Part shown: piece by piece, positions 1 through 15,548 of the stretch
How positions within the stretch are numbered: the first letter of the stretch is position 1
How the letters are laid out: each line of letters begins with the position of its first letter
Source of the DNA: a virus
Lineage: Duplodnaviria; Heunggongvirae; Uroviricota; Caudoviricetes
IMG/VR virus record: IMGVR_UViG_2636416166_000011
DNA length: 15,548 bases
Reading direction: 5' to 3' (one strand)
Program-made: the position numbers and the translations under genes
Notes under the pieces: model-generated
Told to the model about the DNA's origin: nothing
The model's database searches: none
What the model saw: the letters and a program-made list of their open reading frames with translations, nothing else

Positions 1-303
1 CTCCGGACGTAAATCACCATCCTTTGGTGCATTCAGAAACGCGTTCAGTGTCCCCGGTGCATCAGTCGGTGCCACATCAATATCCCCGACACGGGTTGGC
101 TGCCAGCCGTTACAGTGAAGCGCAACCTCGTAATACCCCGGCTCAGCCTCAATCACATAAGCACCGTTATTGTCCGTCACGCAAGTGGCAACAACGTGTG
201 CCACAACGGTCGGACTGGTTCTTCTGGCCCGCAGTTCAATCGCACAATTTACGACAGGTTTACCCGCCCCATCTTTCAGTACACCTGAAATCTTTACTGC
301 CAT
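1..303 (-). CDS. stf: Side tail fibre protein Stf, N-terminal 101 codons (partial; continues beyond window start)
   Basis: Minus-strand ATG at 303..301; translation MAVKISGVLKDGAGKPVVNCAIELRARR... matches my recollection of the lambda Stf N-terminus (MAVKISGVLKDG.GKPV.NC). Lies immediately downstream of lom as in lambda. Open to the window edge. Confidence 0.75.
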   Translation of the reverse strand, partial: MAVKISGVLKDGAGKPVVNCAIELRARRTSPTVVAHVVATCVTDNNGAYVIEAEPGYYEVALHCNGWQPTRVGDIDVAPTDAPGTLNAFLNAPKDGDLRPE

Positions 304-313
304 ATTCACCCCA

Positions 314-340
314 CAAAAAGCCCGCCTGAACCAGCGGGCT
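314..340 (-). terminator. Rho-independent terminator downstream of lom
   Basis: Minus strand reads AGCCCGC-TGGTTCAG-GCGGGCT followed by TTTTTGTGGGG: 7-bp GC-rich stem (plus 319..325 / 334..340) with T-run (plus A-run 314..318). Sits 27 nt after the lom stop. Confidence 0.6.
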
Positions 341-366
341 GTCATAACACTGTGTTACCTGGCTAA

Positions 367-966
367 TCAGAACTTATAACCGACACCCACGATGAAACCG
401 TCAGTGCGCCAGTCGCCACTGCCGGAACCTTCATAAGCAAGGTCAATGGCCACGGATTCGGTCGGGTTAAACTGCACGCCAGCCCCCCACGCCAGAGACG
501 TGTTGCTGTGGCGGTTGTCATCACTCCCGGTCAGCACATCGTGCGTTTTCCCCTTGTTGTCAGTTACGCGGAGATAATCCCCGGAGAAGGTCGACACACG
601 GCTGTAAGCCACGCCCGCCATCGCATACGCGCTGAACCATTCATTCACGCGCACAGACGGCCCCGCCATCACGCTGAACCAGCGGTTACGCACGGAATCC
701 TCATGCCAGCGGGTATCGCTGTAATGCGTTTTTTGCTCATCTTCAGCGTTGGCATAGCTGAATGACGTCACCAGCCCCAACGTGTCCGTAAACTCATAAC
801 GGTATTTCACGTTAATGCCCTTCAGGTCATCGCTGCCTGGCATATCAGTATGGGGCTGAAGATACCCGGCGCTCAGCGTGGACTGATGTTCAGACGCCCA
901 TGCAGGCGCACCGGATACAGCCAGACAGATGGCTGCGGACAAAATGGCTGCACAAACTTTACGCAT
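367..966 (-). CDS. lom: Lom outer-membrane protein (Ail/Lom family beta-barrel), 199 aa
   Basis: ORF 367..966, ATG start with GAGAGG Shine-Dalgarno upstream; N-terminal signal peptide (MRKVCAAILSAAICLAVSGAPAWA); C-terminal aromatic residue (…GVGYKF) typical of OMP barrels; position between J and stf as in lambda. Confidence 0.9.
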   Translation of the reverse strand: MRKVCAAILSAAICLAVSGAPAWASEHQSTLSAGYLQPHTDMPGSDDLKGINVKYRYEFTDTLGLVTSFSYANAEDEQKTHYSDTRWHEDSVRNRWFSVMAGPSVRVNEWFSAYAMAGVAYSRVSTFSGDYLRVTDNKGKTHDVLTGSDDNRHSNTSLAWGAGVQFNPTESVAIDLAYEGSGSGDWRTDGFIVGVGYKF

Positions 967-990
967 AATTACCTCTCGCTTTTCTGCAAT

Positions 991-1014
991 AAAAAAGGCA
1001 CCATTTCTGGTGCC
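991..1014 (-). terminator. Rho-independent terminator between J and lom
   Basis: Minus strand GGCACCA-GAAA-TGGTGCC followed by TTTTTTATTG (plus stem 997..1003 / 1008..1014, A-run 991..996). Starts 20 nt after the J stop. Confidence 0.6.
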
Positions 1015-1033
1015 CGTATCTGGGTTATAAAAT

Positions 1034-4000
1034 TCAGCTAATCGTGATGCCTGCAGTGGCTTTCTTCATCACAACAACCAGCAAATCGCTGATACTTGCT
1101 GTGGGATACCAGCCATTTACCAGCCATGCCGATACAGAAAACTCCAGCGTCATGTGACCGTGACCGGCAGGCATATCAATAACACCCGTATATATCAGCG
1201 TATTATCCAGGGTCGTTCGGTTATAAATTTCAGCACCGTTTTTCTTCACTATCAGGCTGCATGACGAATAAATATTGTTATTCTTCCGCTCATGTTTAGC
1301 ACCGCGAAACGCCACCGCGGGAATAACAATTTGCCGATCAAACGGCTGATCGTCATAAACCCTGACGGTAATGGTCCCTGATGGCCACCTCTCCGGTGCC
1401 CGGGAGTCCCGTGGGAAAGGTTTGCCCACTGTTTTAACGAGATCGCCTTCAATCTGGTTCGCGGACAATTTTCCCAGAACCCGACAGTTCTTATTAATCG
1501 TGACGTTGTTGAGCGTCCCGGAGTTCGCGTTCACGTTACCGCTGATATCGGCATTTTTCGCCGTCAGCCGTCCGCCAGGTGTCAGGGAAAATGCCGGAGG
1601 ATTACCGCCGCTGGTAATGGTCGGAGCCGTCAGGCGTTTCAGGAACACGTCGTTCATGAATATCTGATCGCCCTGACCAACAAACATCGGCTTTGTGTTG
1701 CCATTCGCAGGATTAATCATCGCAATCCTGTCTGCCGCCAGCAGCACCTGACTCTGCATTCCTGCTGGCGTATTCTCAATACCGGCACCGATACCCGCAA
1801 TATAAAGGCGTCCGTCCTTCATCTGTTGCAGCTTCACAGCCCACATGCTGTTCAGGTTATTATTTGTATCAACCTGAACTTTCTGTATCTGCTGGATTGC
1901 AGCACTCTGATTTTCCAGTTTTTTATTGACGGTTTGCGTGATTTCATTGCTGACATTCGTAATGGACGTCCTGATTTCAGTCAGGTCCGGCGCAAGCTGA
2001 CCGTTATCAATCTGCGTCCACAACTCCTTGCCGAGATGCGTGTTATTGATCAACCCTTTATAAAAACTCAGATAACCTTCCGCATCATCGCTCGCCCGAC
2101 CGACGGCCTCCACAAATGCCGATTTGCCAACGGTGTTCACACTGCGAACGTAAAAATAATAATCATGGCCCGGCCTGATATTGATACTGGCGGCTATCCA
2201 GTACAGCGCCGTGCCAAGATAGCGGGCGCTGGTTTCAACCTGCCTGATATCCGCAATCCGCTTTTCCGAAAACCAGAACTCAAACTGCACCGTCGGGTCG
2301 TATACAGCCAGTTTCGGGACCGCCGTTATCTGAAAATACCCCGGTATCAGTTCAATAGTGACGGCGCTGCCGGTGCGGCAATCCGGAACGATACCGACGC
2401 CGGATCGCCCTGCTGCCCCCGGGCATTTACCGCCCGGACTGTCAGACTGTAATTCCCCAGCGCCAGCTGCCTGAAGCGGTATGTGGTTTCCGTCGTCCTG
2501 GCTGTGCTGACCAGCCGCTCACTGCCGTCATCCGCTGCCACGGTCAGGCGAAGCAGGAAGCTCACACCCTTCACCACCTTCGGCGTGTCCCATCGCGCCA
2601 GCACCTGATATTCCCCGCTGTCTGCGGTGACTTCGGCGGTCAGATGCTGCACCGCTGGCGGCGTGACACCATTCACCGTGCCGCGCCGGTCACCGTCAAA
2701 GTGTGCCCCGTTATCCACGATGGCCTCTTTTTCCGGCACATGCTGCACGGCGGTGATGGCATACGTGCCGTCGTCGTTCTCACGGATACTCACGCAGCGG
2801 AACAGGCGCTGGCGCAGCGTCGGCAGCTTCAGCCCCCACACGCTGTATTCTGCAACGCCGTCAGGAACCCGGCTCACTTTCACCTTCACGCCGTCGGTGA
2901 CGGACTGAACCTCCACGCTGACCGGATTGCCATTTCCGTCAACCAGGCTTATCAGCGTGGTACAGGAGGACGGCAGCGTGATTTCACGGTCGAGCGTCAG
3001 CGTCCGGGTCTGGCTGTTCACCGCCAGTACGCGACCACCGGTGCTGATACCGGCATAATCATCATCGCAGATTTCAATGACATCACCCGGTACATGGCGA
3101 AGCCCTTCTGCGCCGACGCTGAAGTCCACGGTCTGCGTTTCCAGCAGTTCCGTTTTAATCAGCCACAGCCCGGCGCGGTGCGCCTGTCCCCGGCTGGTAC
3201 AGCCAAAGGCATCCATCTTCGTGACGTTACGACCGTAACGGAGAATGGCCTGCGCGTCCTCCACAAGCTCTGTCGCCGTCTCATGACCGTTGTCCGGATC
3301 AATCCAGTTCACCTCAACGACATTATGGCGGTCCTTCAGGGCGCTGAAGCTGTAGCGGAACGGCGCGCCATCATCCGGCATCACCACATTACTGCGGTTA
3401 TAGGTCCACACTTTATCCGACGGTCGGTCCTGCACGAACGTCAGCGTCTGCCCGTTCCATACCGGCATACAGCGCATCGCCGAGCAGAAATCACTGAGAA
3501 CATCCCACGCCTTACGCTGTGTGGTCAGGTAAGCGTTACAGGTGATGCGCGGCTCCGTGCCGCCAAATCCGTCCGGCACTGACTGGTCGCAGTACTGGCC
3601 GATGACATACAGCGCCCATTTGTCCACATCTGCCGCACCAAGACGTTTCCCCATGCCGTAGCGCGGATGAGTGAGCATGTCCCACCGACACCAGGCCATG
3701 TTGTTGCTGTATGCTGGCTTAAGCGTTCCGTCCCAGATACCGCTGTATTGCCGCGTCTGCGGGTTATAGTTCGACGGCACCTGCAGAATGCGCCCGCGAA
3801 GATGATAATTGCGACTCACCTGCTGGTTACCGAACTGCTCTGAATCCACCTGCACGCCGACCAGCGCCGTGTTCGGGTAGCACTGTTTCACATCGATGAT
3901 TTCGGTGTATGACGACCAGAGCGTTTTGTTCTGCAGCTGGTCTGTGGTGCTGTCCGGCGTCATCCTGCGCATCCGGATATTAAACGGGCGCGGCGGCAGG

Positions 4001-4512
4001 TTACCCACCACCACCGAGGCCAGATACTGCGAAGTGGTTTTGCCCTTAATGGTGATGTCTTTTTCCGTCACCCAGCCACCGTTACGCTGTATCTGAACCA
4101 GCAGGCGGACTTCCGACGGATTCCGGTCCCCCTTTGAGGTGTTTTCCACCAGTGCCTGCACACCGAAGGTCAGGCGCAGACGATCAATGTTTGCCGACGT
4201 GATGGTCCGGGTGATCGGCGTGTCGTATTTCACTTCCGTACCCAGCACAGTCTCTGAGCCGGAAGATTCAACCCCCTCCGGCGGTGTCTGCTCCTGCTCG
4301 CCGGCGCGGAACACCACCGTAACACCGGAAAAGTTTGTCTTCCCCTCGCTGTCCAGGACTGGCGTACCGTTCAGCAGCACGCTTTTTAATCCATCCACCG
4401 GACCGTCAACCGGCCCTTCGCTGATGGCATCAATCACACTCAGCAACTGCGTGGATTTCAGGTTGTCCTTCGCTTCGCGCGGGGTATGCCCCTTACTGCT
4501 GCCTTTACCCAT
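1034..4512 (-). pseudogene. J: Tail tip host-specificity protein J (central fibre), reading frame broken near 2356..2361
   Basis: Two ORFs in different frames: 2347..4512 (721 aa, MGKGSSKGHTPREAKDN... ends ...[13 protein letters not shown]) and a second frame open from upstream of 2400 to 1034 (…[33 protein letters not shown]… to …[10 protein letters not shown]). Lambda J as I recall it reads ...[19 protein letters not shown]..., so the two frames join with an apparent 1-nt deletion in minus-strand TCAC-TATTGAA. Combined length about 1159 codons versus 1132 in lambda. Confidence 0.85.
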
Positions 4513-4533
4513 TCCTCACGCTCCATAAACGAC

Positions 4534-4554
4534 AAAACCGCCCGCAGGCGGTTT
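4534..4554 (-). terminator. Candidate stem-loop (weak terminator/attenuator) in the I-J intergenic region
   Basis: Minus strand AAACCGCC-TGCG-GGCGGTTT followed by TGTCGTTT; 6-bp GC stem (plus 4537..4542 / 4547..4552). T-run is interrupted, so termination efficiency is doubtful. Confidence 0.3.
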
Positions 4555-4572
4555 CACATGAAACATTTTGCA

Positions 4573-5214
4573 TCAGCGACCAATCACCACAACCTGACCA
4601 CCATCCCCTTCGTCTGCCGTGCTGATCTCCTGAGATACCACCCGCGACCCCACGCGCATTTCACCGTACAGAACAGGCAGAACATTGCCCTGGGCAACCA
4701 TGTTATCCAGTGAGGAGAAACAGGTGTTCTGTTTGCCGTTATCCGTTGTCTGTGTACGGGGAGTTCTGGCTTTCGGTGCCAGCATCTGTGCAACACCGCC
4801 AAGCGTCATACTGGCACCGAGAGAAAACAGCAGATTACTCGCCATAATTCCTACCCCCGGCATCCATATAGCAACCGCCATAACAGCTGCCCCCAGCACC
4901 GCCTGAAACACACCGCCACTTTTAGCTCCCACCAGACGCGGTACTATGTGGATCACTGCACCATTTGCCAGCGGCTCATTAAGACGGGCAGACAATTCGG
5001 TTTCACCTGCATCACGCCCGGCAATGCGCACCTGATACCAGCCGTCACTCAGTTTCTGACGAAACGCCGGGAGCTGTGTGGCCAGTGCGCGGATGGCTTC
5101 AGCCCCCGTTTTCACACGAAGGTCGATGCGGCGGCCAAATCGTTGCAAATCCCCGTAAAGGCAGATGCGTGCCATTCCCGGTGACGCCAGAGGGAGTGTG
5201 TGCGTCGCTGCCAT
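4573..5214 (-). CDS. I: Tail tip assembly protein I, 213 aa
   Basis: Translation MAATHTLPLASPGMARICLYGDLQRFGRRIDLRVKTGAEAIRALATQLPAFRQKLSDGWYQVRIAGRD... and C-terminus ...VLYGEMRVGSRVVSQEISTADEGDGGQVVVIGR match lambda gpI as I recall it; central hydrophobic segment. Confidence 0.85.
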   Translation of the reverse strand: MAATHTLPLASPGMARICLYGDLQRFGRRIDLRVKTGAEAIRALATQLPAFRQKLSDGWYQVRIAGRDAGETELSARLNEPLANGAVIHIVPRLVGAKSGGVFQAVLGAAVMAVAIWMPGVGIMASNLLFSLGASMTLGGVAQMLAPKARTPRTQTTDNGKQNTCFSSLDNMVAQGNVLPVLYGEMRVGSRVVSQEISTADEGDGGQVVVIGR

Positions 5215-5855
5215 TTGTCGGTATACCTCTCTCGTTTACTCAGTTGTTCAGGAATATGGTGCAGCAGCTCACCGTCGCCGCAGTAAATGGCGGCATGATT
5301 CGGCACCGATGAACCAAAACAGCACAGCAGCACATCGCCCGGTTGTGCTGATGACAACGGCACCTGATACAGCCCTGTGGCCTCCAGATTATCCAGATAG
5401 AGATTCTGACCGTGACGCCACCAGTCATCCCCGCGATGAAAATCCGGCATCTCAATCCCCGCCAGATGATAAGCATCCCGGAACAGCGTGTAACAGTCCG
5501 TCACCCCGTGCTCAAAGCGCCGCCCGGTGAGATGCGGCACACAGCGGAACTTGTGAATCGCCCCCCGGCAGACCAGCCACCACGGCAAATCACTCTGCAC
5601 CTGCAGCCGCCGGTCAGCCTCACTCAGCCAGGGCAGACCACCGGGATGACTGTGGACCAGTGCCACAATCTCCCCCTGCATCTCTGCCCGCAGCCAGTCT
5701 TCCGGTGCGATACGAAAATACGCCTCCGGCTCTGCAGAAATATTCACACAAGGGATATACCGCTCCCCCTCCGGCGTTCTCACCACGAAGCCACACGACT
5801 CCGCTGGCGCACATCGCCGGGCGTGCGCCAGAATCGCTGATTCTGTCTGTGTCAT
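5112..5855 (-). CDS. K: Tail tip assembly protein K (MPN/JAMM plus NlpC/P60-like domains), 247 aa
   Basis: The six-frame ORF 5112..6119 is over-extended; the real start is the ATG at 5855 (MTQTESAILAHARRCAPAESCGFVV...), 4 nt after the L stop. Contains HSHPGG (JAMM-like) and Cys/His/His residues (VTDCY, NHAAIY, LLHH) of an NlpC/P60-type fold. Overlaps I by 103 nt. Confidence 0.8.
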   Translation of the reverse strand: MTQTESAILAHARRCAPAESCGFVVRTPEGERYIPCVNISAEPEAYFRIAPEDWLRAEMQGEIVALVHSHPGGLPWLSEADRRLQVQSDLPWWLVCRGAIHKFRCVPHLTGRRFEHGVTDCYTLFRDAYHLAGIEMPDFHRGDDWWRHGQNLYLDNLEATGLYQVPLSSAQPGDVLLCCFGSSVPNHAAIYCGDGELLHHIPEQLSKRERYTDKWQRRTHSLWRHREWHASAFTGICNDLAAASTFV

Positions 5856-5859
5856 GGAT

Positions 5860-6559
5860 TTACTGAGAAAGTTTATTGATGGAAAGGAAACCGCCGAAAT
5901 TACCGGTATTGTTGCGCAACTCACACCCGCGCATACACTTGCTGCATTTGTCCTTCCGGATATCCGTCGTTGGTTTGTCGAACTCGTCAGCCACTGCCCT
6001 GCCCGTGTAACCACACTCATCAGAACGGTAGGTCCACATACAGGTATTCGCCAGCATGATACGCCCCGGGAAAACCGCGCCATCCGTCTCCGTTGGTGTG
6101 GCCAGCACAAAAGAGGCACTGACCGCGCTCAGTTCGCTGCACTGCTCGATGCGCCAGCGGCTGATCACCTCCTGCTCCGGATCGGCGTCACTGTTTCCGT
6201 TGACGAAGTTCACCGCATCCAGAAAACGGGCGTAAACCTTACGCCGGACCACCGTTCCGCCGACCAGACTCTGCAGATCTTCCGCCATCCCGGCGACCAT
6301 ACCGTACAGGTTAGAAACCGTCAGCGTGGGGCGCGTACTGGTGCCTTTGCCATTCAGTTCAAAACCACTCCCCCTGAATGGGATACGGCTGATACTGTCG
6401 CCCCTGCCAGGTGACCGGCTCACCTTTTTCGTTCTGCTCATTACAGAAAAAATAACGTTCTCCACCGACCTCTGTCAGGTCGATTTCCCAGAGCACCACG
6501 CTGGCCGACTGCTCCGCACGGGTGCATTCATTCAGTGTTTCCTGCCGGATATCCTGCAT
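5860..6559 (-). pseudogene. L: Tail tip protein L, reading frame broken at a C5/G5 homopolymer (6370..6374)
   Basis: N-terminal ORF 6359..6559 (MQDIRQETLNECTRAEQSASVVLWEIDLTEVGGERYFFCNEQNEKGEPVTWQGRQYQPYPIQGEWF*) and second frame down to 5860 (…GSGFELNGKGTSTRPTLTVSNLYGM…FGGFLSINKLSQ*). Removing one G from minus-strand CAGGGGGAG gives ...YPIQGSGFELNGKG..., the lambda gpL sequence as I recall it. ATGA overlap with the M stop at 6559. Confidence 0.85.
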
Positions 6560-6888
6560 CAGTTCACCACCTGTTCAAAATCGGCCGTTACAGTCACCCA
6601 TAACGCCCCCACGCTTGCCGACCATTTACGACAAGCCACCCTGATCGGTTTCCAGTCATAAGGTGGCGTCCACTGAAATGCGCGGACGCCACCGTGCCGT
6701 TCCAGAAAGGCTTTTAAAGGTGGGTGTTCACCTTTACGAACACGTATCGTCACGCTGTAAGTCGACAGCAGATTATTCAGTCCCGCCGGGCGACGCTGTT
6801 CATAACCATCACCCAGCTTCACTGCCACCACTTTTGGCTCTGATACCACATTCATATCCGGGCGCACCTTCCAGCGAAACGTCTCCAT
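6559..6888 (-). CDS. M: Tail tip protein M, 109 aa
   Basis: METFRWKVRPDMNVVSEPKVVAVKLGDGYEQRRPAGLNNLLSTYSVTIRV...FEQVVN; same length as lambda gpM and collinear with it as I recall; start overlaps the H stop (TAATG). Confidence 0.85.
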   Translation of the reverse strand: METFRWKVRPDMNVVSEPKVVAVKLGDGYEQRRPAGLNNLLSTYSVTIRVRKGEHPPLKAFLERHGGVRAFQWTPPYDWKPIRVACRKWSASVGALWVTVTADFEQVVN

Positions 6889-9800
6889 TACCGGTATGCT
6901 CCACTTAACCGGCCACCATCACGGGCCTGCTGTTGCATAAAGTCCGCGGCCGCTTTTTTCCCGAGGTCATAAACCACCTTCAGTGCTGCCGGACCTATCT
7001 GCCCGTTCGTGCCGTCGTTATTGATCCCGATGTTGTACTGCGGGGCAAACATCACCATGCCTGAACCACCAGTATCCGCCACAACCCCCAGCTTACCATC
7101 AGCACCGCGACGCAGTGGCAGAATGGCTTTAGGTCCCGCTTCCCCCATCACACCCGCGCCTTTTGCAAAAGCAAAAAACGTCGGACGGTTAACCACCGTG
7201 CCACTGTAGCGACTCAAATCAGCAGACTGGTAAACACCGCCATCAGCATTAGTCGTGAAGCCGAATAAAGAGCCGACGCCCTTTACCGCCTGCATCATGG
7301 CCATCTGTGCCATAATTCTGGCCATATCTGACAACAGGGAAGAGGTGAAGGATTTAAAATTCAGCTTACCGGTGGTACAGAATGTCGCCAGTGCATTACC
7401 GGCACTGCTGAATGCCACTGTAAACATCTGTTCTGCCGTTCCCACCGCATTATCCGCATCCGCCGTAAAATTCTGAAACGCCCGCATGGCACCGTTTTTC
7501 CAGTCGCCCTGCGCCACTTCCAGTTCCTGCCAGTAGCGTTTGTTTTCATTCAGTTGTCGCTTCAGGCTCCCCTTCAGCACCTCCTCAGCCCTCCGGTAGT
7601 CCTCCGTCCCGTAAGTGCCTTTCTGGCGACTGTCATTCTCAAGCTGTTGCAACTGTTGCCGGTATTCCTGCCGGATGCGCAACTGTGCCTGGTAGCGCTG
7701 CCGCTGCTTATCCCCCATACCTGCAGTGGCAATATCCAGATTGTGCTGCTCACGCAGTGCACGTTCTTTGTCTGCCAGCTGGCTGGTCAGCTGAACCGTT
7801 TTTTTTCTCAGGTCGTTAAGCGCTGTCTGTTTCTGCAGCTCCTGCTGTTTCACATCCAGCAGCGTCAGCGCCTGAATCAGCTCATTCTTACGGGCCAGCA
7901 CACTCTTTTCATCTGCCGTCAGCTTTTTCCCGTCCAGGTCGCTGATGCGCTGCTGCAGGGCCAGAAGCTGTTTATGCGCTTCAGTCATCCTTTCAGTGGC
8001 AATGCCTGCTGACTGTCTGGCAGCAGCAATCTGCCCTTCCACCTGTGCCTGCTGCTGACTGTACTGCAGCAATAACCGGGTGGCCTCATCATTACGGGTT
8101 GCCCGTGTATTTTTCTTAATGGCTTTTTCGTAACGTTCATTTTCACGCTGTATCGCCGCATCCCTGACAGCCTGGTCGGCGTACTGCATGGCATTAATAC
8201 GCGCAATTTCCCGCTGATGTCGTGCAGCTTCCGTTTCATTCATCCGGTTCAGCGCGGCATTTTCAGCATTCCGGCGTTTCTGTTGCTCCTGGTAATTCCG
8301 TTCTGCCTGCGCTTTTGCATCCTGCAAATCCTTCCGGCGTTTTTTCTCCTGAAGATCGTTAAGACGCTGCTGATCGTACTCCACCTGTGTGGAGGCGTTT
8401 GTCCACGGATATTTTTTCGCGCGCTGAATTTTTTCCTGTAACGCATCAATCTGCGCATCCAGCGAGTCTTCACGACCAATATTCATGGCCGCATCCCAGA
8501 ACTGCTTCCACCAGTCAGACAAGGTTTGCAGCGTACTACCCAGCGCATTGAGATTATTATCAATATCAGATGTGCGTTTACCGGTTTCCTCTGCCAGCGC
8601 AGACATGGCGATCCGGGCCGCATCACTGGACCGCCCCTGCTCCCCAAGGACGCGTATCTGCTCAAGCTGAGTGGCAGTCAAAAAATGCAGCGCATTGTCC
8701 AGCGCCTTCGCGGCATTTACAGGATCATCCTTCAGCCGCTTAAACTGATTTATGGTATCGCTGACCGACTGGCCAACCGATCGCTCCATCTGTGCGGCAG
8801 CTTTCGCCACCATACCAATATCGTTTCCATGAAATGCCCCACTGCCCACCACCTGTGCCAGCGCACCGGCTGCCGCATGTTGCGTGATACCATTCCCGGA
8901 TATGGCCCGGCTGAGTTTCCACAACTGCCCGACAGTGACACCGGCATAATGTCCCGTCAGCGCCAGCTGACGGTTAAATTCCTCGCCCTCCTTCCGGCCG
9001 TCATGCCAGGCTTTACCCAGACCCAGGACCGCCGCGACAAGTCCGCCAATAACGCCGCCAGTCATCATGCCTTTCGGCGACATCAGTGCGCCTGTCCATC
9101 CGGCACGGTTAGCCAGCGTTATCCCGGATCCCCTCAGCGCACCAAAATTGCCGCGCGCCATCTGACTGATTAACACCCCCAGCTCCCGCCGGGCTGCCGC
9201 ACTTTTCAGCCCCAGCGAATGTGTGGCTTTTCCTGCCCGCTCCATTTTGCGGATATACACTTCTGCAGCACTGCTTACCCCCAGCTGAGCCGCCCTGGCG
9301 CGAAGCAACTCAGAAGACGACAGATTCTGGCGGGTTGCCTGCTCTTTAAGCTGGCGGATAAACGCCGCTTTCTGCCGGGTGGCCTGTTCCTCTGCCTGCG
9401 TCAGGGCACGGGTTTTCGCCGTGATCTCCGAAATCAGCGCCAGATAATCCTGCTGACCAACCCCGCCACTGTTTCTGGCCTGTCGGATCTGCTGCTGAAT
9501 ACGCTGTAATTCCTGAAGCCCCGCACCGGCCTGTTTCACACTGTCAATCTGGCGATAAAAGGCGGCAGCCGCTTTATCCTGCGCCTCCGCCAGTGCCCTG
9601 GCCTGCGCCTGTTCCTCGCGCATTTTCTGATTCAGGGCATCCACGCGCAGACGGGTTTGTTCCACCTCACGGGCCATGCGTTCATGAGCCCGTGCATTCT
9701 TCTCCACCGTCTGCGCATGGGCTGATGCTGCTGTTGCAGCCGAAGAAGCCGCATGCATTGTCTGCCGGGCCGCCTGAGTCTGACGCTCCATAAAACGCTG

Positions 9801-9929
9801 CATACGGGCAGAAGACCGTTCTGCATCACCGGCTGCACCATTCAGAAGGTTTTTGATACGGGGAATTTCATTTTTAAACTCTGCCGCATCAATCCCCAAA
9901 TCAATGACCAGGTTGGCTATCTGGTCCAT
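6888..9929 (-). CDS. H: Tail tape measure protein H, about 1013 aa
   Basis: Long ORF with a coiled-coil-rich, Q/R/E/A-rich central region; N-terminus MDQIANLVIDLGIDAAEF and C-terminus ...NNDGTNGQIGPAALKVVYDLGKKAAADFMQQQARDGGRLSGAYR resemble lambda gpH ends. Start chosen at ATG 9929 preceded by GGAGG (9940..9944); the ORF track begins at an upstream TTG at 9959, which is possible but less likely. Confidence 0.85.
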   Translation of the reverse strand: MDQIANLVIDLGIDAAEFKNEIPRIKNLLNGAAGDAERSSARMQRFMERQTQAARQTMHAASSAATAASAHAQTVEKNARAHERMAREVEQTRLRVDALNQKMREEQAQARALAEAQDKAAAAFYRQIDSVKQAGAGLQELQRIQQQIRQARNSGGVGQQDYLALISEITAKTRALTQAEEQATRQKAAFIRQLKEQATRQNLSSSELLRARAAQLGVSSAAEVYIRKMERAGKATHSLGLKSAAARRELGVLISQMARGNFGALRGSGITLANRAGWTGALMSPKGMMTGGVIGGLVAAVLGLGKAWHDGRKEGEEFNRQLALTGHYAGVTVGQLWKLSRAISGNGITQHAAAGALAQVVGSGAFHGNDIGMVAKAAAQMERSVGQSVSDTINQFKRLKDDPVNAAKALDNALHFLTATQLEQIRVLGEQGRSSDAARIAMSALAEETGKRTSDIDNNLNALGSTLQTLSDWWKQFWDAAMNIGREDSLDAQIDALQEKIQRAKKYPWTNASTQVEYDQQRLNDLQEKKRRKDLQDAKAQAERNYQEQQKRRNAENAALNRMNETEAARHQREIARINAMQYADQAVRDAAIQRENERYEKAIKKNTRATRNDEATRLLLQYSQQQAQVEGQIAAARQSAGIATERMTEAHKQLLALQQRISDLDGKKLTADEKSVLARKNELIQALTLLDVKQQELQKQTALNDLRKKTVQLTSQLADKERALREQHNLDIATAGMGDKQRQRYQAQLRIRQEYRQQLQQLENDSRQKGTYGTEDYRRAEEVLKGSLKRQLNENKRYWQELEVAQGDWKNGAMRAFQNFTADADNAVGTAEQMFTVAFSSAGNALATFCTTGKLNFKSFTSSLLSDMARIMAQMAMMQAVKGVGSLFGFTTNADGGVYQSADLSRYSGTVVNRPTFFAFAKGAGVMGEAGPKAILPLRRGADGKLGVVADTGGSGMVMFAPQYNIGINNDGTNGQIGPAALKVVYDLGKKAAADFMQQQARDGGRLSGAYR

Positions 9930-10250
9930 AACGCACACCTCCGGAAATACCTTCCCCAAGATGCATCAGTTCTTCGTCCGTTCGCTCCGGTATCCCGTTC
10001 TCTTCCGGTAAAAGGCTGAAATCAGCCACCGCAGCATCACTGCTGCCGGACACCATTCTCACGATCAATGCCTTCAGCGAGGCAAACTGCGCATCCATCC
10101 ACACATCACTGAAGCTCTGCATCCGGAAATAATCGCCCCCTCACCAAGCTCAGTGGCCGACATTTCCGACAGCATCCGCCGCCAGTCTGCCCGCCGGAAC
10201 TCCCGGGCAAGCCGCATGACAAACTGCATTTCCCGCGTCAGGACTTTTCC
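9901..10250 (-). pseudogene. T: Tail assembly chaperone T region (expressed as G-T fusion by -1 frameshift); the T frame itself is interrupted at a C5/G5 run (10136..10140)
   Basis: The -1 frame relative to G is open from 10262 to a stop at 10074 (…AGKVLTREMQFVMRLAREFRRADWRRMLSEMSATELGEG…). A third frame is open from 10140 to 9901 (GGDYFRMQSFSDVWMDAQFASLKALIVRM…GPDSQPGH*), ending 29 nt inside H. Adding one G to the minus-strand G5 run would fuse the two into one T-length ORF of about 120 codons. Confidence 0.6.
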
Positions 10251-10627
10251 GGCGTCAGCGCCTCATGATCATCATCCCCGGCATTCTCAATGGTCCCCAT
10301 ACCGCTCAGCGACAGAACCCTCTCCGCCCCCGCGCCCAGCGCATCATACGACCATGTTGTCATAATGGATGCGCAAAGCGTCTCAACATCCTGAGACTGC
10401 TCAGCATTCCACAGTGAGCGGGAAACCAGCCAGGCATTGATATCCATTCCCATACGCAGAAAAGCAATCTGTCGTTCAGCCTCCGGCAGTTCTCCCTCCT
10501 GTGCATCAAACTTTGCCGTTCGCTGCTGAACAAACGTCAGATATTCAATTCTCTGCAGCCCGGACAGCTCACTGAGCACCACGGACTGTTTTTCATAATT
10601 AAACGTATCCTGTTTCAGAAACATCAT
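10238..10627 (-). CDS. G: Tail assembly chaperone G, about 129 aa
   Basis: ORF 10238..10642 begins at a TTG; more likely starts are the tandem ATGs at 10627/10624 (MMFLKQDTFNYEKQSVVLSELSGLQRIEYL...) with GGAG 6 nt upstream. Acidic C-terminus (...ENAGDDDHEALTPEKS). Position between V and T/H. Confidence 0.8.
   Translation of the reverse strand: MMFLKQDTFNYEKQSVVLSELSGLQRIEYLTFVQQRTAKFDAQEGELPEAERQIAFLRMGMDINAWLVSRSLWNAEQSQDVETLCASIMTTWSYDALGAGAERVLSLSGMGTIENAGDDDHEALTPEKS
10244..10250 (-). other. Putative -1 programmed ribosomal frameshift site for G-T fusion (GGAAAAG)
   Basis: Minus-strand heptamer G-GAA-AAG in the G frame, 2 codons before the G stop. The -1 frame opens just upstream at 10262, so the shift must occur in the last 8 codons of G. 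Position matches lambda, where the slip site as I recall is G-GGA-AAG. Confidence 0.4.
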
Positions 10628-10640
10628 GTTCTCCGGATGC

Positions 10641-10663
10641 AAAAAGCCCCGGATAACCGGGGC
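10641..10663 (-). terminator. Rho-independent terminator between V and G
   Basis: Minus strand GCCCCGG-TTAT-CCGGGGC followed by TTTTTG (plus stem 10646..10652 / 10657..10663, A-run 10641..10645). Begins 20 nt after the V stop and ends just before the G Shine-Dalgarno. Confidence 0.6.
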
Positions 10664-10682
10664 AATGATGAGTATCGTCCTG

Positions 10683-11423
10683 TTATGGTGCGCTGACGGT
10701 CACCGCAGCCACTGCCACAAACTCTCCGTCAGAGGTCATGCCCACGATGCTGACACTGCCCTGCTTCACGCCTTTCACCGTGGCCACAAGCCCGCTCAGG
10801 GTCACCGAAGCAGTCTGAGGATCTGACGAATGCACACTGATCGCTTTGTCACTGGCCCCGTCAGGTTTTACTGTAAAGGTCAGTGTGGTGGTTGCTCCCG
10901 CTTTGACACTGACAGATGCCGGTGCCACCGTCAGTCCGGTAACACCCACGGTTTCAGCGCCCTCCTCTGCCAGATACGGACGCCCCACACCGCTGATTTT
11001 TACAGTACGGGTCATCACCTCTTTTGAGGTAATGGTTTTACCCAGTGAACTCAGCCAGCCACGGAAAACATCAACCGTACCGTTGGGGTATTTGATACGA
11101 AACGCGCAGACTTCACCGGAATCGAACAACTGAACCAGTTTTTTCTGCCCGCTGTCACCCGGACGCCAGGCCAGCGTCGCCAAAGTATCACCGACGGATT
11201 TCTGCCCCTGGGTTGTCGTTTTCCAGTCTGCATCTTCATCATCGAGATAAGTGTCATCTTCTGCATCAGCGGTCATTTCGCCAGGTTGCAGATCCTTCAC
11301 CATCGCAAGACGCAGCCAGTCAGTGTCCGACAAAGGGTTCGCAAACGCATCGCCCTTGCCGGTGTACATCCAGAACGTCGTTCCCGCACCTTTCGTCTTT
11401 GCCAGTGGATTTGGTGTGGTCAT
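10683..11423 (-). CDS. V: Major tail tube protein V with C-terminal Ig-like (Big_2-type) domain, 246 aa
   Basis: The ORF track starts at an upstream alternative codon; the real start is ATG 11423 (MTTPNPLAKTKGAGTTFWMYTGKGDAFANPLSDTDW...) preceded by AAGGAGG. Collinear with lambda gpV as I recall (…YLDDEDADW…FPNGTVDVFRGW…) and same length. Confidence 0.9.
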   Translation of the reverse strand: MTTPNPLAKTKGAGTTFWMYTGKGDAFANPLSDTDWLRLAMVKDLQPGEMTADAEDDTYLDDEDADWKTTTQGQKSVGDTLATLAWRPGDSGQKKLVQLFDSGEVCAFRIKYPNGTVDVFRGWLSSLGKTITSKEVMTRTVKISGVGRPYLAEEGAETVGVTGLTVAPASVSVKAGATTTLTFTVKPDGASDKAISVHSSDPQTASVTLSGLVATVKGVKQGSVSIVGMTSDGEFVAVAAVTVSAP

Positions 11424-11433
11424 TGCCACCTCC

Positions 11434-11835
11434 TTAATTCGTGTACGTGATCTGGTACGTGATTTCCGCCATCGCCCAGGTGGCCATCTCATTATCACGT
11501 TGATAGTTAAAACCGAGTGGGATCATGGTGTCGATGAGTCCGGAAAGCACCGGAATATCCTTCATGGCCGGAAATATGGTGTTCTCCATCCACGTATCCA
11601 GCTCAGAATCCGGCGCCTGTGCACGGACGAAAACGGCAATATGCAGAACAGCCTGCCAGTCGTCCTCATCCGTCATTTTTCCGGTGTACTGCGCATCACT
11701 CAGCCACACCGCCACGGCGGGCAGTTCCTGCGCATCAATAAATGCCGGAAGCCCGTCAAAAAGCACGACATTCCCCCCGCATTCGCCCTTCAGGCTTGCC
11801 AGTACTGCCTGGCGGATTTGTGTGTGCCTGTTCAT
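11434..11835 (-). CDS. U: Tail tube terminator protein U, 133 aa
   Basis: MNRHTQIRQAVLASLKGECGGNVVLFDGLPAFIDAQELPAVAVWLSDAQYTG... resembles lambda gpU (MKHTELRAAVLDAL...FFDGRPAVFDEADFPAVAVYLTGAEYTG...) as I recall; ATGA overlap with the Z stop. Confidence 0.85.
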   Translation of the reverse strand: MNRHTQIRQAVLASLKGECGGNVVLFDGLPAFIDAQELPAVAVWLSDAQYTGKMTDEDDWQAVLHIAVFVRAQAPDSELDTWMENTIFPAMKDIPVLSGLIDTMIPLGFNYQRDNEMATWAMAEITYQITYTN

Positions 11836-12419
11836 CCCAAATGTATCCTCAGTTGCTGTTTCAGGGCATACCCCAGCTGTTTCGGCATTTCCGCGGCAAT
11901 GATGCGATCGCGGGCATCCTCAAATGCCTGTGTCAGCGGTCCGGCCAGCGGAATTTTCACAACCTCCACGGGCAGACGATTTTTTCTGGGCCGCCCCTTA
12001 CTGTCCTTTCCTGTTTCAAAACACGCTTCAGGAAGACGCCTGAGAACATGCCAGCGACCGTTCGCCAGCTGCTGGATAAACGCACCACGAAAAAAGTATT
12101 TCCCCACCTTCAGTCCGTCACCGGCACGCCGGCATGTTGTGCCAAGCTTAATGGCGGGCAGATTGCCCCGGTTAACACGGATACGGGCATACATTTTTCC
12201 TGCCGGACTGGCTTTAAATACCCGGACGCGCTGACGCACCAGTTTCAGGGGGCCCCCCTTCACCTGGTTATCTCCCGCAACGGTATTCCTGGCGACCTGC
12301 CGGGTGGCAACCGAGACAACTTTTGCAGCAACCCGGTTTACTGCCCATGCGCTGGCCTGCGGCACCATACGGGTATCAAGACTGTTCAGATTGCGGATGG
12401 CATTCTCAAGCCCCCTCAT
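11832..12419 (-). CDS. Z: Tail completion protein Z, 195 aa
   Basis: MRGLENAIRNLNSLDTRMVPQASAWAVNRVAAKVVSVATRQVAR...GAFIQQLANGRWHV...VVKIPLAGPLTQAF...LGYALKQQLR resembles lambda gpZ (MKGLERAIQNLNSL...GAFIQQLKNGRWHV...) as I recall. Confidence 0.85.
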   Translation of the reverse strand: MRGLENAIRNLNSLDTRMVPQASAWAVNRVAAKVVSVATRQVARNTVAGDNQVKGGPLKLVRQRVRVFKASPAGKMYARIRVNRGNLPAIKLGTTCRRAGDGLKVGKYFFRGAFIQQLANGRWHVLRRLPEACFETGKDSKGRPRKNRLPVEVVKIPLAGPLTQAFEDARDRIIAAEMPKQLGYALKQQLRIHLG

Positions 12420-12564
12420 AATATCCCCCTGCCCTTACGTTTCCTGCTCCTTCACGCCGCAACCGGATATAACTACATCCGCCGTCATCAGGAGTAATAC
12501 GATCCACGCTGAAAGACTCCCGGCCAATCATCAGCGAATCATTGCGACACAGCTGTAAAATATC
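12406..12564 (-). pseudogene. FII: Head-tail joining protein FII, 3' fragment (last 52 codons), truncated by IS66 insertion
   Basis: Minus-strand frame entering from the IS66 boundary reads DILQLCRNDSLMIGRESFSVDRITPDDGGCSYIRLRREGAGNVRAGGYYEGA*; compare my recollection of the lambda gpFII C-terminus ...RQLRRGDTLTIGEENFWVDRVSPDDGGSCHLWL.... Stop overlaps the Z start. No start codon; the frame is cut by the IS66 left end. Confidence 0.6.
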
Positions 12565-12589
12565 GTAAGCGTAAACTGACCGCCGTATG
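12565..12589. repeat. IS66-family left terminal inverted repeat
   Basis: GTAAGCGTAAACTGACCGCCGTATG, matches the right end in inverted orientation. Confidence 0.7.
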
Positions 12590-12650
12590 TAGCCATTAAG
12601 CCTGTATTGGTAACGTAGGTGCCCACCTTTTCAACTAGTGGACACCTGTT

Positions 12651-13070
12651 ATGGAACAGAAAGCATTATCTGCAGAACCCCGCAGATCATTTTCAAATGA
12701 GTTTAAACTTCAAATGGTTAAACTGGCTTCACAACCAGGAGCCTCTGTTGCCCGTATTGCCCGGGAACACGATATCAATGATAACCTGCTGTTTAAATGG
12801 CTCAGGCTCTGGCAGAACGAAGGGCGCATATCGCGGCGTCTTCCGGTAACAACCTCTTCTGACACTGGCGTTGAATTATTACCTGTGGAGATAACGCCGG
12901 ATGAGCCGAAAGAACCTGTGGCTGGTCTTACTCCGTCTTTATCTACTCAGACTACAGTTAGTGCCAGCTCCTGCAAGGTGGAGTTCCGTCACGGTAACAT
13001 GACGCTGGAAAATCCTTCACCAGAGCTGCTCACAGTGTTGATCCGTGAACTGACCGGGAGGGGACGATGA
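12651..13070 (+). CDS. IS66-family accessory protein TnpA (orf1), 139 aa
   Basis: First ORF of the element (MEQKALSAEPRRSFSNEFKLQMVKLASQPGASVARIAREHDINDNLLFKWL..., helix-turn-helix-like N-terminus); stop overlaps the orfB start (ATGA). Confidence 0.8.
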   Translation: MEQKALSAEPRRSFSNEFKLQMVKLASQPGASVARIAREHDINDNLLFKWLRLWQNEGRISRRLPVTTSSDTGVELLPVEITPDEPKEPVAGLTPSLSTQTTVSASSCKVEFRHGNMTLENPSPELLTVLIRELTGRGR

Positions 13071-13417
13071 TCTCACTCCCGTCAGGCACCCGCATCTGGC
13101 TCGTTGCTGGGATAACCGATATGCGTAAGTCTTTCAACGGGCTGGGTGAACAGGTACAGCATGTGCTGAATGATAATCCCTTCTCCGGTCACCTGTTCAT
13201 CTTCCGTGGCCGACGGGGTGACATGATTAAAATCCTGTGGGCTGATGCTGATGGTCTGTGCCTGTTCACCAGACGCCTGGAGGAAGGCCAGTTTATCTGG
13301 CCTGCTGTGCGTGACGGCAAGGTATCCATTACCCGCTCGCAACTGGCAATGCTCCTCGATAAGCTGGACTGGCGTCAGCCAAAAACATCCCGCCTTAATG
13401 CACTGACAATGTTGTAA
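13067..13417 (+). CDS. IS66-family TnpB (orf2), 116 aa
   Basis: MISLPSGTRIWLVAGITDMRKSFNGLGEQVQHVLNDNPFSGHLFIFRGRRGDMIKILWADADGLCLF... is the characteristic IS66 Orf2 sequence; translationally coupled to orfA. Confidence 0.85.
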   Translation: MISLPSGTRIWLVAGITDMRKSFNGLGEQVQHVLNDNPFSGHLFIFRGRRGDMIKILWADADGLCLFTRRLEEGQFIWPAVRDGKVSITRSQLAMLLDKLDWRQPKTSRLNALTML

Positions 13418-13447
13418 AAATGTCATGGCCGGATTATAAAAACGGCC

Positions 13448-15040
13448 ATGAATCAAAAATACCTCATTCGCATTGCAGAACTGGAATGCCAGCTCCGTCA
13501 GAAAGACCAGCAACTGAGTCTGGTTGAAGAGACGGAGGCCTTCCTGCGCTCTGCACTGGCCCGCGCCGAAGAAAAGATCGAAGAAGATGAACGGGAAATA
13601 GAACATCTGCGGGCTCAGATAGAAAAACTGCGCCGGATGCTGTTCGGTACCCGTTCTGAAAAACTGCGTCGTGAAGTTGAACAGGCTGAGGCCCTGCTGA
13701 AACAACGCGAACAGGACAGTGATCGTTACAGTGGGCGGGAAGACGATCCGCAGGTTCCCCGCCAGTTGCGACAGTCTCGTCATCGTCGCCCGTTACCGGA
13801 GCATCTGCCCCGCGAAATAAATCGCCTGGAGCCAGAAGAAAGCTGTTGCCCGGAGTGTGGCGGTGAGCTGGATTATCTGGGGGAAGTCAGCGCAGAACAA
13901 CTGGAACTGGTGAGCAGCGCTCTGAAAGTGATCCGCACAGAACGGGTAAAAAAAGCCTGTACAAAATGTGACTGCATCGTTGAAGCACCGGCACCATCCC
14001 GTCCGATAGAGCGTGGTATCGCGGGCCCGGGGTTACTTGCCCGCGTGTTAACGGGAAAATACTGCGAACACCTGCCACTGTATCGTCAGAGTGAAATTTT
14101 TGCCCGTCAGGGTGTCGAACTGAGCCGTGCATTACTCTCCAACTTGGTTGACGCGTGCTGCCAGTTAATGACGCCGCTGAATGATGCTCTGTACCGTTAT
14201 GTAATGAACAGCCGCAAAGTTCACACTGATGACACACCAGTAAAAGTGCTGGCACCGGGCAGGAAGAAGGCGAAAACAGGATATATCTGGACGTATGTCC
14301 GGGATGACAGGAATGCCGGTTCGCCAGAGCCTCCGGCGGTCTGGTTCGCCTACTCACCGGACCATCAGGGTAAACATCCGGAGCAGCACCTTAGTCCCTT
14401 CCGGGGTATCCTGCAGGCAGATGCGTTTAATGGTTACGATCGGCTGTTCAGTGCCGAACGAGAAGGCGGCGCGTTGACGGAAGCAGGATGCTGGGCTCAT
14501 GCGCGGCGCAAAGTCCACGATGTATATATCAGTACCAAAAGCGCGACAGCGGAAGAAGCCCTGAAACTAATCGGTGAGCTGTACGCCATCGAGCACGAAA
14601 TACGCGGGTTGCCGGTGTCTGAACGCCTGGCGGTCAGGCAAATGCAGAGTAAACCGCTACTGACTTCCCTGTATAAGCTGATGCAGGAGAAAGAACACAC
14701 GTTATCGAAAAAATGCCGTCTGAGAGATGCGTTCCGGTATATCAGGAAGCACTGGGTTGCGTTGTGCAACTTCAGTGATGATGGTCTGGCTGAGGCGGAT
14801 AATAATGCCGCGGAAAGAGCGCTTCGTGCAGTCTGTCTCGGAAAGAAAAACTTTATGTTCTTCGGCAGCGATCACGGTGGAGAGCGTGGTGCGCTACTGT
14901 ACGGGCTGATCGGCACCTGCCGACTGAACGGTATCGATCCGGAAGCGTATCTGCGCTATATCCTGAGCGTACTGCCGGAATGGCCTTCCAACCGTGTTGA
15001 CGAACTCCTGCCATGGAACGTAGCACTCACCAATAAATAA
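13448..15040 (+). CDS. IS66-family transposase TnpC (orf3), 530 aa
   Basis: N-terminal coiled-coil/leucine-zipper region, zinc-ribbon CPECGGEL...CTKCDC, then DDE-type catalytic core (…HTDDTPVKVL…YIWTYV…, …DAFNGYD…, …CWAHARRKV…); ends just before the right inverted repeat. Confidence 0.85.
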   Translation: MNQKYLIRIAELECQLRQKDQQLSLVEETEAFLRSALARAEEKIEEDEREIEHLRAQIEKLRRMLFGTRSEKLRREVEQAEALLKQREQDSDRYSGREDDPQVPRQLRQSRHRRPLPEHLPREINRLEPEESCCPECGGELDYLGEVSAEQLELVSSALKVIRTERVKKACTKCDCIVEAPAPSRPIERGIAGPGLLARVLTGKYCEHLPLYRQSEIFARQGVELSRALLSNLVDACCQLMTPLNDALYRYVMNSRKVHTDDTPVKVLAPGRKKAKTGYIWTYVRDDRNAGSPEPPAVWFAYSPDHQGKHPEQHLSPFRGILQADAFNGYDRLFSAEREGGALTEAGCWAHARRKVHDVYISTKSATAEEALKLIGELYAIEHEIRGLPVSERLAVRQMQSKPLLTSLYKLMQEKEHTLSKKCRLRDAFRYIRKHWVALCNFSDDGLAEADNNAAERALRAVCLGKKNFMFFGSDHGGERGALLYGLIGTCRLNGIDPEAYLRYILSVLPEWPSNRVDELLPWNVALTNK

Positions 15041-15045
15041 GCGTC

Positions 15046-15308
<263 letters not shown>

Positions 15309-15548
15309 CCCCTTCTCATTCAGGCCACGGATAATGGTGGTGTACAGACCATCCTGCGTGCTCAGTGACGGCGGGAATGAAGTTTCAATCGGACGAACAA
15401 CGACCACGCCAGAATTCAGATCGGTGTGCTCATTCAGGAGATCGATTTGCCAGTCAACAAAGGCGCGCAGGAAGTTACCTTCACCAAACTGAATGATACG
15501 TTCTGGATACTGTGCACCGGGAATATCGCGACGATTTAGTGTTTTCAC
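15309..15548 (-). pseudogene. uxaB: Altronate oxidoreductase (tagaturonate reductase) UxaB, N-terminal 80 codons only; 3' part removed at the IS3-family element end
   Basis: Minus-strand translation from the window edge (GTG at 15548..15546) [80 protein letters not shown] matches my recollection of the E. coli UxaB N-terminus (mannitol-dehydrogenase family Rossmann fold). The stop codon ending the ORF at 15306..15308 is the terminal TGA of the IS element, not a native stop; the full protein is about 480 aa. Confidence 0.7.

Follow-up and report, generated by a model that had tools for sequence, protein, structure and literature searches.

In phage lambda, the tail assembly chaperone gpG is produced at a ratio of about 30:1 to gpGT, the product of a rare -1 frameshift, and the G part of each attaches to the tape measure protein (PMC5009743). 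The T domain carried by gpGT interacts with the tube protein gpV and initiates gpV polymerization, thereby recruiting V onto the complex of tape measure protein and G (PMC5009743). The two parts correspond to the Pfam families PF06894 and PF06223, the programmed shift takes place at the heptamer G GGA AAG, and the lambda T coding sequence is 435 nt long (~144 aa). Gene decay is well documented in Shigella (e.g., "Gene Decay in Shigella," PMC3218036). Here, we describe a lambda-type T gene from a decaying Shigella prophage, in which the reading frame is broken by the loss of a single base.

The stretch of DNA analyzed, referred to below as the window, is a viral sequence of 15,548 nt (IMG/VR record IMGVR_UViG_2636416166_000011). 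Pfam searches, together with the matching gene order of annotated E. coli prophages, identified the genes on its minus strand, which form a tail block of the lambda type (Table 1). As in lambda, V, G, T, and H follow one another in this order, T is read in the -1 frame relative to G, and a lambda-like heptamer, the predicted slip site, is found in the overlap at the end of G. The G product corresponds in position to the protein annotated as gpG in E. coli prophages; its frame is open from 10642, with an ATG at 10624. The start of H overlaps the end of T, and the length of H equals that in the relatives. At the place of the lambda heptamer G GGA AAG, the window has G GAA AAG, and this stretch is identical in the intact relatives, phage mEp460 included. 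By likeness to lambda (PMC5009743), ribosomes would be expected to slip at this heptamer, and it presumably works, being identical in the functional phages mEp460 and cdtI. P-site re-pairing on G GAA AAG would be from GAA to GGA, which is non-canonical. Between V and G, inside the tail operon, the minus strand also holds a GC-rich hairpin (GCCCCGG TTAT CCGGGGC, followed by TTTTT; 10646-10663), and in phage mEp460 the equivalent sequence carries the annotation of a rho-independent terminator.

Table 1. Features of the tail block and its surroundings, in window coordinates
Feature	Position	Strand	State	Basis or remark
Mannitol_dh-family gene fragment	15306-15548		fragment	Pfam; beyond the IS66-family element
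IS66-family element	12563..15072	plus	apparently complete	26-nt imperfect terminal inverted repeats, three ORFs; repeats and Pfam
ORFs of the IS66-family element	12651-13070, 13067-13417, 13448-15040			
Z	12419-11832	minus	intact	
U	11835-11434	minus	intact	
V, major tail tube gene	10683..11423	minus	intact	Pfam Phage_TTP_12 and Big_2
G, tail assembly chaperone	10238..10624	minus	apparently intact, 128 aa from ATG	Pfam PF06894 Phage_TAC_2, 137.5 bits
Presumed G-T slippery heptamer G GAA AAG	10244..10250	minus		0 frame ...CCG GAA AAG TCC TGA
T, 5' part	10074..10250	minus	split	
T, 3' part	9901..10140	minus	split	
Deletion junction in T	10139..10140	minus	one T missing (plus-strand A), first base of Trp31 TGG	alignment with relatives, VL46, and survey of the pattern at all loci
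G5 run made by the deletion	10136..10140	minus		G of GAG plus GGGG from T-GG-GGC
H, tape measure, 1013 aa	6888..9929	minus	intact	Pfam TMP_2, TMP_4, Tape_meas_lam_C
M	6888-6559	minus	intact	
L	6559-5860	minus	split	
Lesion in L	6370-6374		C4 to C5 insertion on plus strand (minus strand G4 to G5)	true homopolymer change
K	5855-5112	minus	intact	
I	5214-4573	minus	intact	
J, tail tip	4512-1034	minus	split	
Lesion in J	2362..2363	minus	1-nt deletion	plus-strand A outside any run
lom	966-367	minus	intact	

The original prediction, made from the sequence of the window alone, had placed a split of T between two frames at plus-strand CCCCC (minus-strand GGGGG, 10140..10136), with the frame entered from G stopping at 10074 and a second, protein-like frame running from 10140 to 9901. 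All of these particulars matched the sequence. The ORF in the -1 frame of G (10229 to 10074, 51 aa) reads MQFVMRLAREFRRADWRRMLSEMSATELGEGAIISGCRASVMCGWMRSLPR and ends at a TGA at 10076-10074. When T is followed from 10250, it begins correctly (MQFVMRLAREF...SATELGE), continues with 20 out-of-frame residues (GAIISGCRASVMCGWMRSLPR), and terminates at the same premature TGA. The path from the slip site (10250-10244) to the 51-aa ORF is free of stops, and a simulated G-T fusion likewise ended at this TGA; no uninterrupted frame thus leads from the slip site to the terminal GGVRYG. The downstream frame of T (GGDYFRMQSF...GGVRYG) reads GGDYFRMQSFSDVWMDAQFASLK...GGVRYGPDSQPGH up to its stop, and a TGA at 10143-10141 directly precedes it in its own frame.

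Pfam searches identified the displaced frame as T. The 3' fragment scored 42.1 bits against PF06223 (Phage_tail_T; profile positions 11-73 of 73) and the repaired T scored 56.5 bits (residues 24-99 against profile positions 1-73), both above the curated cut-off of 25.9 bits, and the 51-aa truncated ORF gave no match in the same database. A natural end of T near 10074 in related phages had been offered as grounds for discarding the split; this view, with the downstream frame open by chance, can be rejected outright, as the downstream frame matches Phage_tail_T, it aligns with lambda T up to the GGVRYG end, and all relatives have a continuous T of 109 aa. The G5 run alone is unremarkable, the window holding 27 runs of at least five C or G; what is non-random is the frame break, every intact relative having an uninterrupted T at this place.

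Alignment with relatives revealed the nature of the lesion. All intact relatives read GAG TGG GGC GAT (E-W-G-D), whereas the window reads GAG-GGG GCG. The intact allele, GAGTGGGGC, was found in the 99.7-99.9% identical prophages of E. coli FDAARGOS_943 and CFSAN029787 and in phage mEp460; the window allele spanning the deletion is GAGGGGGC. FDAARGOS_943 was 99.9% identical to the window over 771 nt, and in a 374-column alignment of the T region the missing T was the only difference of the window from both FDAARGOS_943 and mEp460. Once the T is restored, the protein is identical to the intact WP_001161009.1 of E. coli prophages and phages mEp460 and cdtI, with DNA identities of 96-99.9%. Unlike the window, these prophages and phages lack the deletion, still possess head genes, and show no break in L or J. 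As the T was lost between a G and GGGG, the G5 run is a product of the deletion. The alleles do not differ in the number of repeats, the comparison being GAG-T-GGGG versus GAG-GGGG, and the change in G-run length that had been proposed as the mechanism gives way to the loss of a T. The locus is neither a homopolymer-length variant nor a programmed frameshift site.

The base lost belongs to a conserved codon. Alignment with homologous T genes, the check put forward together with the original prediction, showed an uninterrupted T in the homologues and an invariant Trp31 in seven T proteins at 35-43% identity (the T family of the window, lambda, phi80, mEp043, VT1-Sakai, an Stx2a phage, and Vibrio phage K245). 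The T of the window aligns with lambda T, including the position of Trp31 and the GGVRYG end, but it is interrupted after residue 30 by the 1-nt deletion, and the codon of this conserved Trp in the N-terminal part of the T domain is destroyed. Addition of one G in a simulation rejoined the frames into a continuous T ORF of 109 aa, so that this part of the earlier proposal stood. The "lambda-like length" expected of the product was a loose description, since lambda T has ~144 aa and the repaired T, like that of its close relatives, has 109 aa from its ATG. Furthermore, the one-G repair restores the frame yet gives W31G and not the ancestral protein, and six Gs would not amount to an intact T, as had been assumed, with a change at a residue invariant in the seven homologues.

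A slipped-strand contraction from six Gs to five would lead to the same final sequence if a T to G substitution (TGG to GGG) had first created a G6 ancestor, and six Gs do restore the frame. We consider this route highly improbable. It requires two events where one suffices, the G6 ancestor would already have been W31G at an invariant residue, and no G6 intermediate was seen. The G6 allele (GAGGGGGGC) was absent from the fetched loci and from the identity bands of the E. coli matches. In a scan of species representatives (GTDB) allowing N{0,1} at the site, six copies were found (from S. flexneri, E. coli, E. ruysiae, and one MAG); all had the T, with no G6 or deletion allele among them. An 81-nt stretch was also searched in 5,426 complete E. 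coli genomes, which yielded full-length matches in 1,836 records. The deletion was present in none of these 1,836 records, all of which fell in the 95-99% identity band. The 30 E. coli matches listed were all 98.8% identical, which equals exactly one gap, and every full-length E. coli match differed from the window by a single gap.

We found the identical deletion in 12 other fetched contigs from different projects (L004-L006, L014-L021, and L023), three of them IMG/VR contigs containing the exact deletion-spanning 36-mer and the other nine NCBI assemblies. Records of 478 contigs list the 73-aa ORF that follows the lesion, and the deletion was present in nine of the ten places fetched. The tenth, L022, has the 73-aa ORF but not the stretch around the deletion; it is a differently arranged remnant with the ORF beside a DUF1441 gene, and not all 478 contigs need have exactly this T deletion. 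An exact look-up of the 51-aa truncated ORF found it absent from the protein collection, with no encoding contigs, and a metagenome scan with the deletion 36-mer gave no matches.

The carriers fell into two sub-lineages. One is close to the window: over 11.6 kb, CP000036.1 (S. boydii serotype 4 Sb227, so named in PMC8767353) showed seven mismatches and two indels internal to the IS, and CP026811.1 (S. flexneri serotype 6 strain 64-5500; PMC9455713) showed 12 mismatches and no indels. Serotype 6 is phylogenetically near S. boydii (PMC8767353). The second sub-lineage (L014, L016-L018, L020, L021, and L004-L006) is separated from the window by ~40 substitutions and does not carry the insertion in L, but it shares the T deletion. 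Its members are truncated in other ways, with an IS4 next to FI upstream, with a shortened U, or with an IS66-family element, inverted relative to that of the window, lying directly against V at window position 11416. The presence of the same deletion in two diverged sub-lineages with different IS truncations indicates that the deletion is older than these rearrangements and was inherited. No substitutions were seen inside T among the Shigella copies and deletion carriers compared, and relaxed selection on T itself is for this reason not demonstrable from sequence.

These carriers also bear on the two causes that the original prediction had left side by side, a true inactivating mutation and a homopolymer-length sequencing error. 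An error in the window, either a miscounted homopolymer or a dropped base in a T that is really intact, would fit a single-base indel beside a G run. The window has two other 1-nt indels, of which the one in L is a true change in homopolymer length and the one in J, at 2363, is private to the window, and some related assemblies are prone to error in C runs. One of these, L017 (CP026823.1, a complete-genome record), has 17 C or G runs that are one base shorter than in the window across ~8.4 kb, with many tail genes broken, and these contractions look like homopolymer assembly errors and not biology. However, L017 agrees exactly with the other carriers at the deletion site despite its many miscounted runs. 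The base lost is a T with Gs on either side and belongs to no run, and the identical deletion recurs in 12 fetched contigs from separate projects and across both sub-lineages. The carriers include Sb227, which we take to be a Sanger-era genome of 2005. An error is thus very unlikely, and the alternative of a true inactivating mutation is upheld by the same 12 contigs, the loss of function itself being what the truncated product would predict.

One carrier stands apart from this pattern. L023 (CABVWS010000008.1, GCA_902502095.1, position 5984) has the identical T deletion in a prophage that is ~90% identical to the window overall, carries mEp460-type alleles at window positions 10268 and 9955, and possesses portal and capsid genes of an HK97-like head together with intact-looking tail genes. 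Three substitutions and the missing T are all that separate it, across 12.2 kb, from the E. coli 21EVA prophage (L030, NZ_CP138427.1). As L023 is otherwise intact-looking, simple vertical inheritance does not explain its deletion, and the cause is one of three: an independent recurrence, a gene-conversion tract shorter than ~310 bp, or a draft error. No informative site in L023 lies between window positions 10268 and 9955. The region is present in one copy in 21EVA, which argues weakly against a resident conversion donor. In the classical dislocation model, misincorporation is followed by realignment, and by this analogy recurrence through a G misincorporated opposite the template A, with realignment on the adjacent run, would be plausible. 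If recurrence is real, the hotspot is weak, none of the ~2,000 copies in complete E. coli genomes carrying the deletion.

The prophage surrounding T is itself decayed. The intact prophage of E. coli VL46, 98% identical over window positions 1-12564, served as the reference for lesions, and three frame-breaking 1-nt indels relative to it were found, in J, L, and T. The insertion in L leaves ORFs of 66 aa (6559-6359) and 201 aa (6465-5860), both of which match PF05100; it is common to Sb227 and 64-5500 and absent from the second deletion-carrying sub-lineage (L004/L005). The deletion in J leaves ORFs of 721 aa (4512-2347) and 418 aa (2290-1034). J is called intact in Sb227 (1159 aa), and the lesion is either private to the strain of the window or an error; in a sister lineage (L005), J has lost a different single base, at window position 2172. 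The IS66-family element has taken the place of all that lay upstream of Z, the head and packaging region, with homology to VL46 ending at 12564, and no head or packaging genes are left in the window. Beyond the element lies the fragment of a chromosomal gene of the Mannitol_dh family.

Essential modules have thus been lost and several inactivating lesions have accumulated, as is the case for a defective prophage. Independent hits in several tail genes, together with the differing IS truncations in sister contigs, are the signature of neutral decay. The prophage is a defunct, headless remnant of the S. boydii/S. flexneri serotype 6 lineage. It resembles known Shigella prophage decay in its host lineage, in its multiple independent frameshifts, and in truncation by IS66 or IS4 at different points in each strain, with no difference of substance, and the window is a further instance of it.

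Two further features of the comparison with VL46 were noted. A patch of K (5673-5766) has ~25 substitutions and compensating indels in less than 100 nt and distinguishes the lineage of the window and Sb227 from E. coli VL46 as well as from the second Shigella lineage; from its sequence, it looks like a small recombination mosaic. VL46 and allied strains hold the closest intact relative of the prophage, which adjoins a gene for an ipaH-family T3SS effector (ipaHd; L013, 386-2137), a neighbor that fits a Shigella/EIEC-type background.

Because a short homopolymer lies exactly where the two frames of T meet, the locus also recalls the indel-correcting recoding described for tssM of Citrobacter rodentium (PMC4256274). 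Frameshifting that corrects indels is a known phenomenon (PMC5009743), and the geometry would permit it here: a P-site tRNA-Gly on GGG (10139-10137) can re-pair with GGG (10140-10138) in a second -1 slip on G GGG G, and the downstream frame is open from exactly 10140, so that some functional G-T could in principle be made. We give almost no credence to such a rescue. In contrast to tssM-type recoding, the run has only five Gs, is not conserved, has no stimulatory structure, and lies in a defunct prophage. No intact homologue has the G5 site, which occurs solely where the deletion is present; it contains no X XXY YYZ heptamer, G GGG GCG not being a tandem-slippage site, and the 95 nt downstream fold no better than their shuffles (z = +0.51). 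The yield would be the frequency of one rare slip times that of the G-T slip, itself rare, the protein made would carry W31G, and with no head genes and with L and J broken there would be nothing to select for rescue. A speculative proposal is that two successive -1 shifts, at the end of G and then at the G5 run, still yield a trace of full-length G-T with W31G, a double-frameshift rescue of a tail chaperone, or, in a milder variant, that GAG-T-GGGG is a site-specific deletion hotspot acting through misincorporation and realignment beside the G4 run. The same deletion in the unrelated intact prophage L023, compared with 21EVA, suggests the hotspot variant; overall, we regard this proposal as extremely unlikely.

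Collectively, these findings make it highly probable that the window carries a vertically inherited deletion of the T of Trp31, with loss of function of G-T, in a pseudogene free of selection within a decaying prophage remnant. According to this explanation, a single base has been lost from a lambda-type T, changing GAG TGG GGC to GAG GGG GC. T would be made only as the C-terminal extension of a G-T fusion, through the rare -1 slip at the end of G, and the fusion would now consist of G, 37 correct residues in the T frame (VLTREMQFVMRLAREFRRADWRRMLSEMSATELGE), and 20 nonsense residues. The deletion falls at about position 8 of the Phage_tail_T profile and puts positions 11-73 out of frame, and almost the whole Pfam T domain would be missing from the fusion. 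By analogy with lambda, loss of T function would be expected: with no domain to recruit V, tail assembly would fail. In a remnant without head genes and with L and J frameshifted, T would no longer be under selection.

The locus is a member of the T family by descent but a pseudogene, and frameshifted genes in Shigella prophages eroded by IS elements are a kind of event known before. As a further pseudogene in such a prophage it carries little biological weight. For users of sequence alone, it offers a caution: where a frame breaks at a homopolymer, the run may itself have been produced by a deletion and need not be what slipped, and the addition of one G is here the wrong repair, giving W31G. 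T at this locus should be annotated as a pseudogene rather than as a 73-aa "partial T", and its deletion is a stable marker common to the S. boydii/S. flexneri serotype 6 group of genomes.
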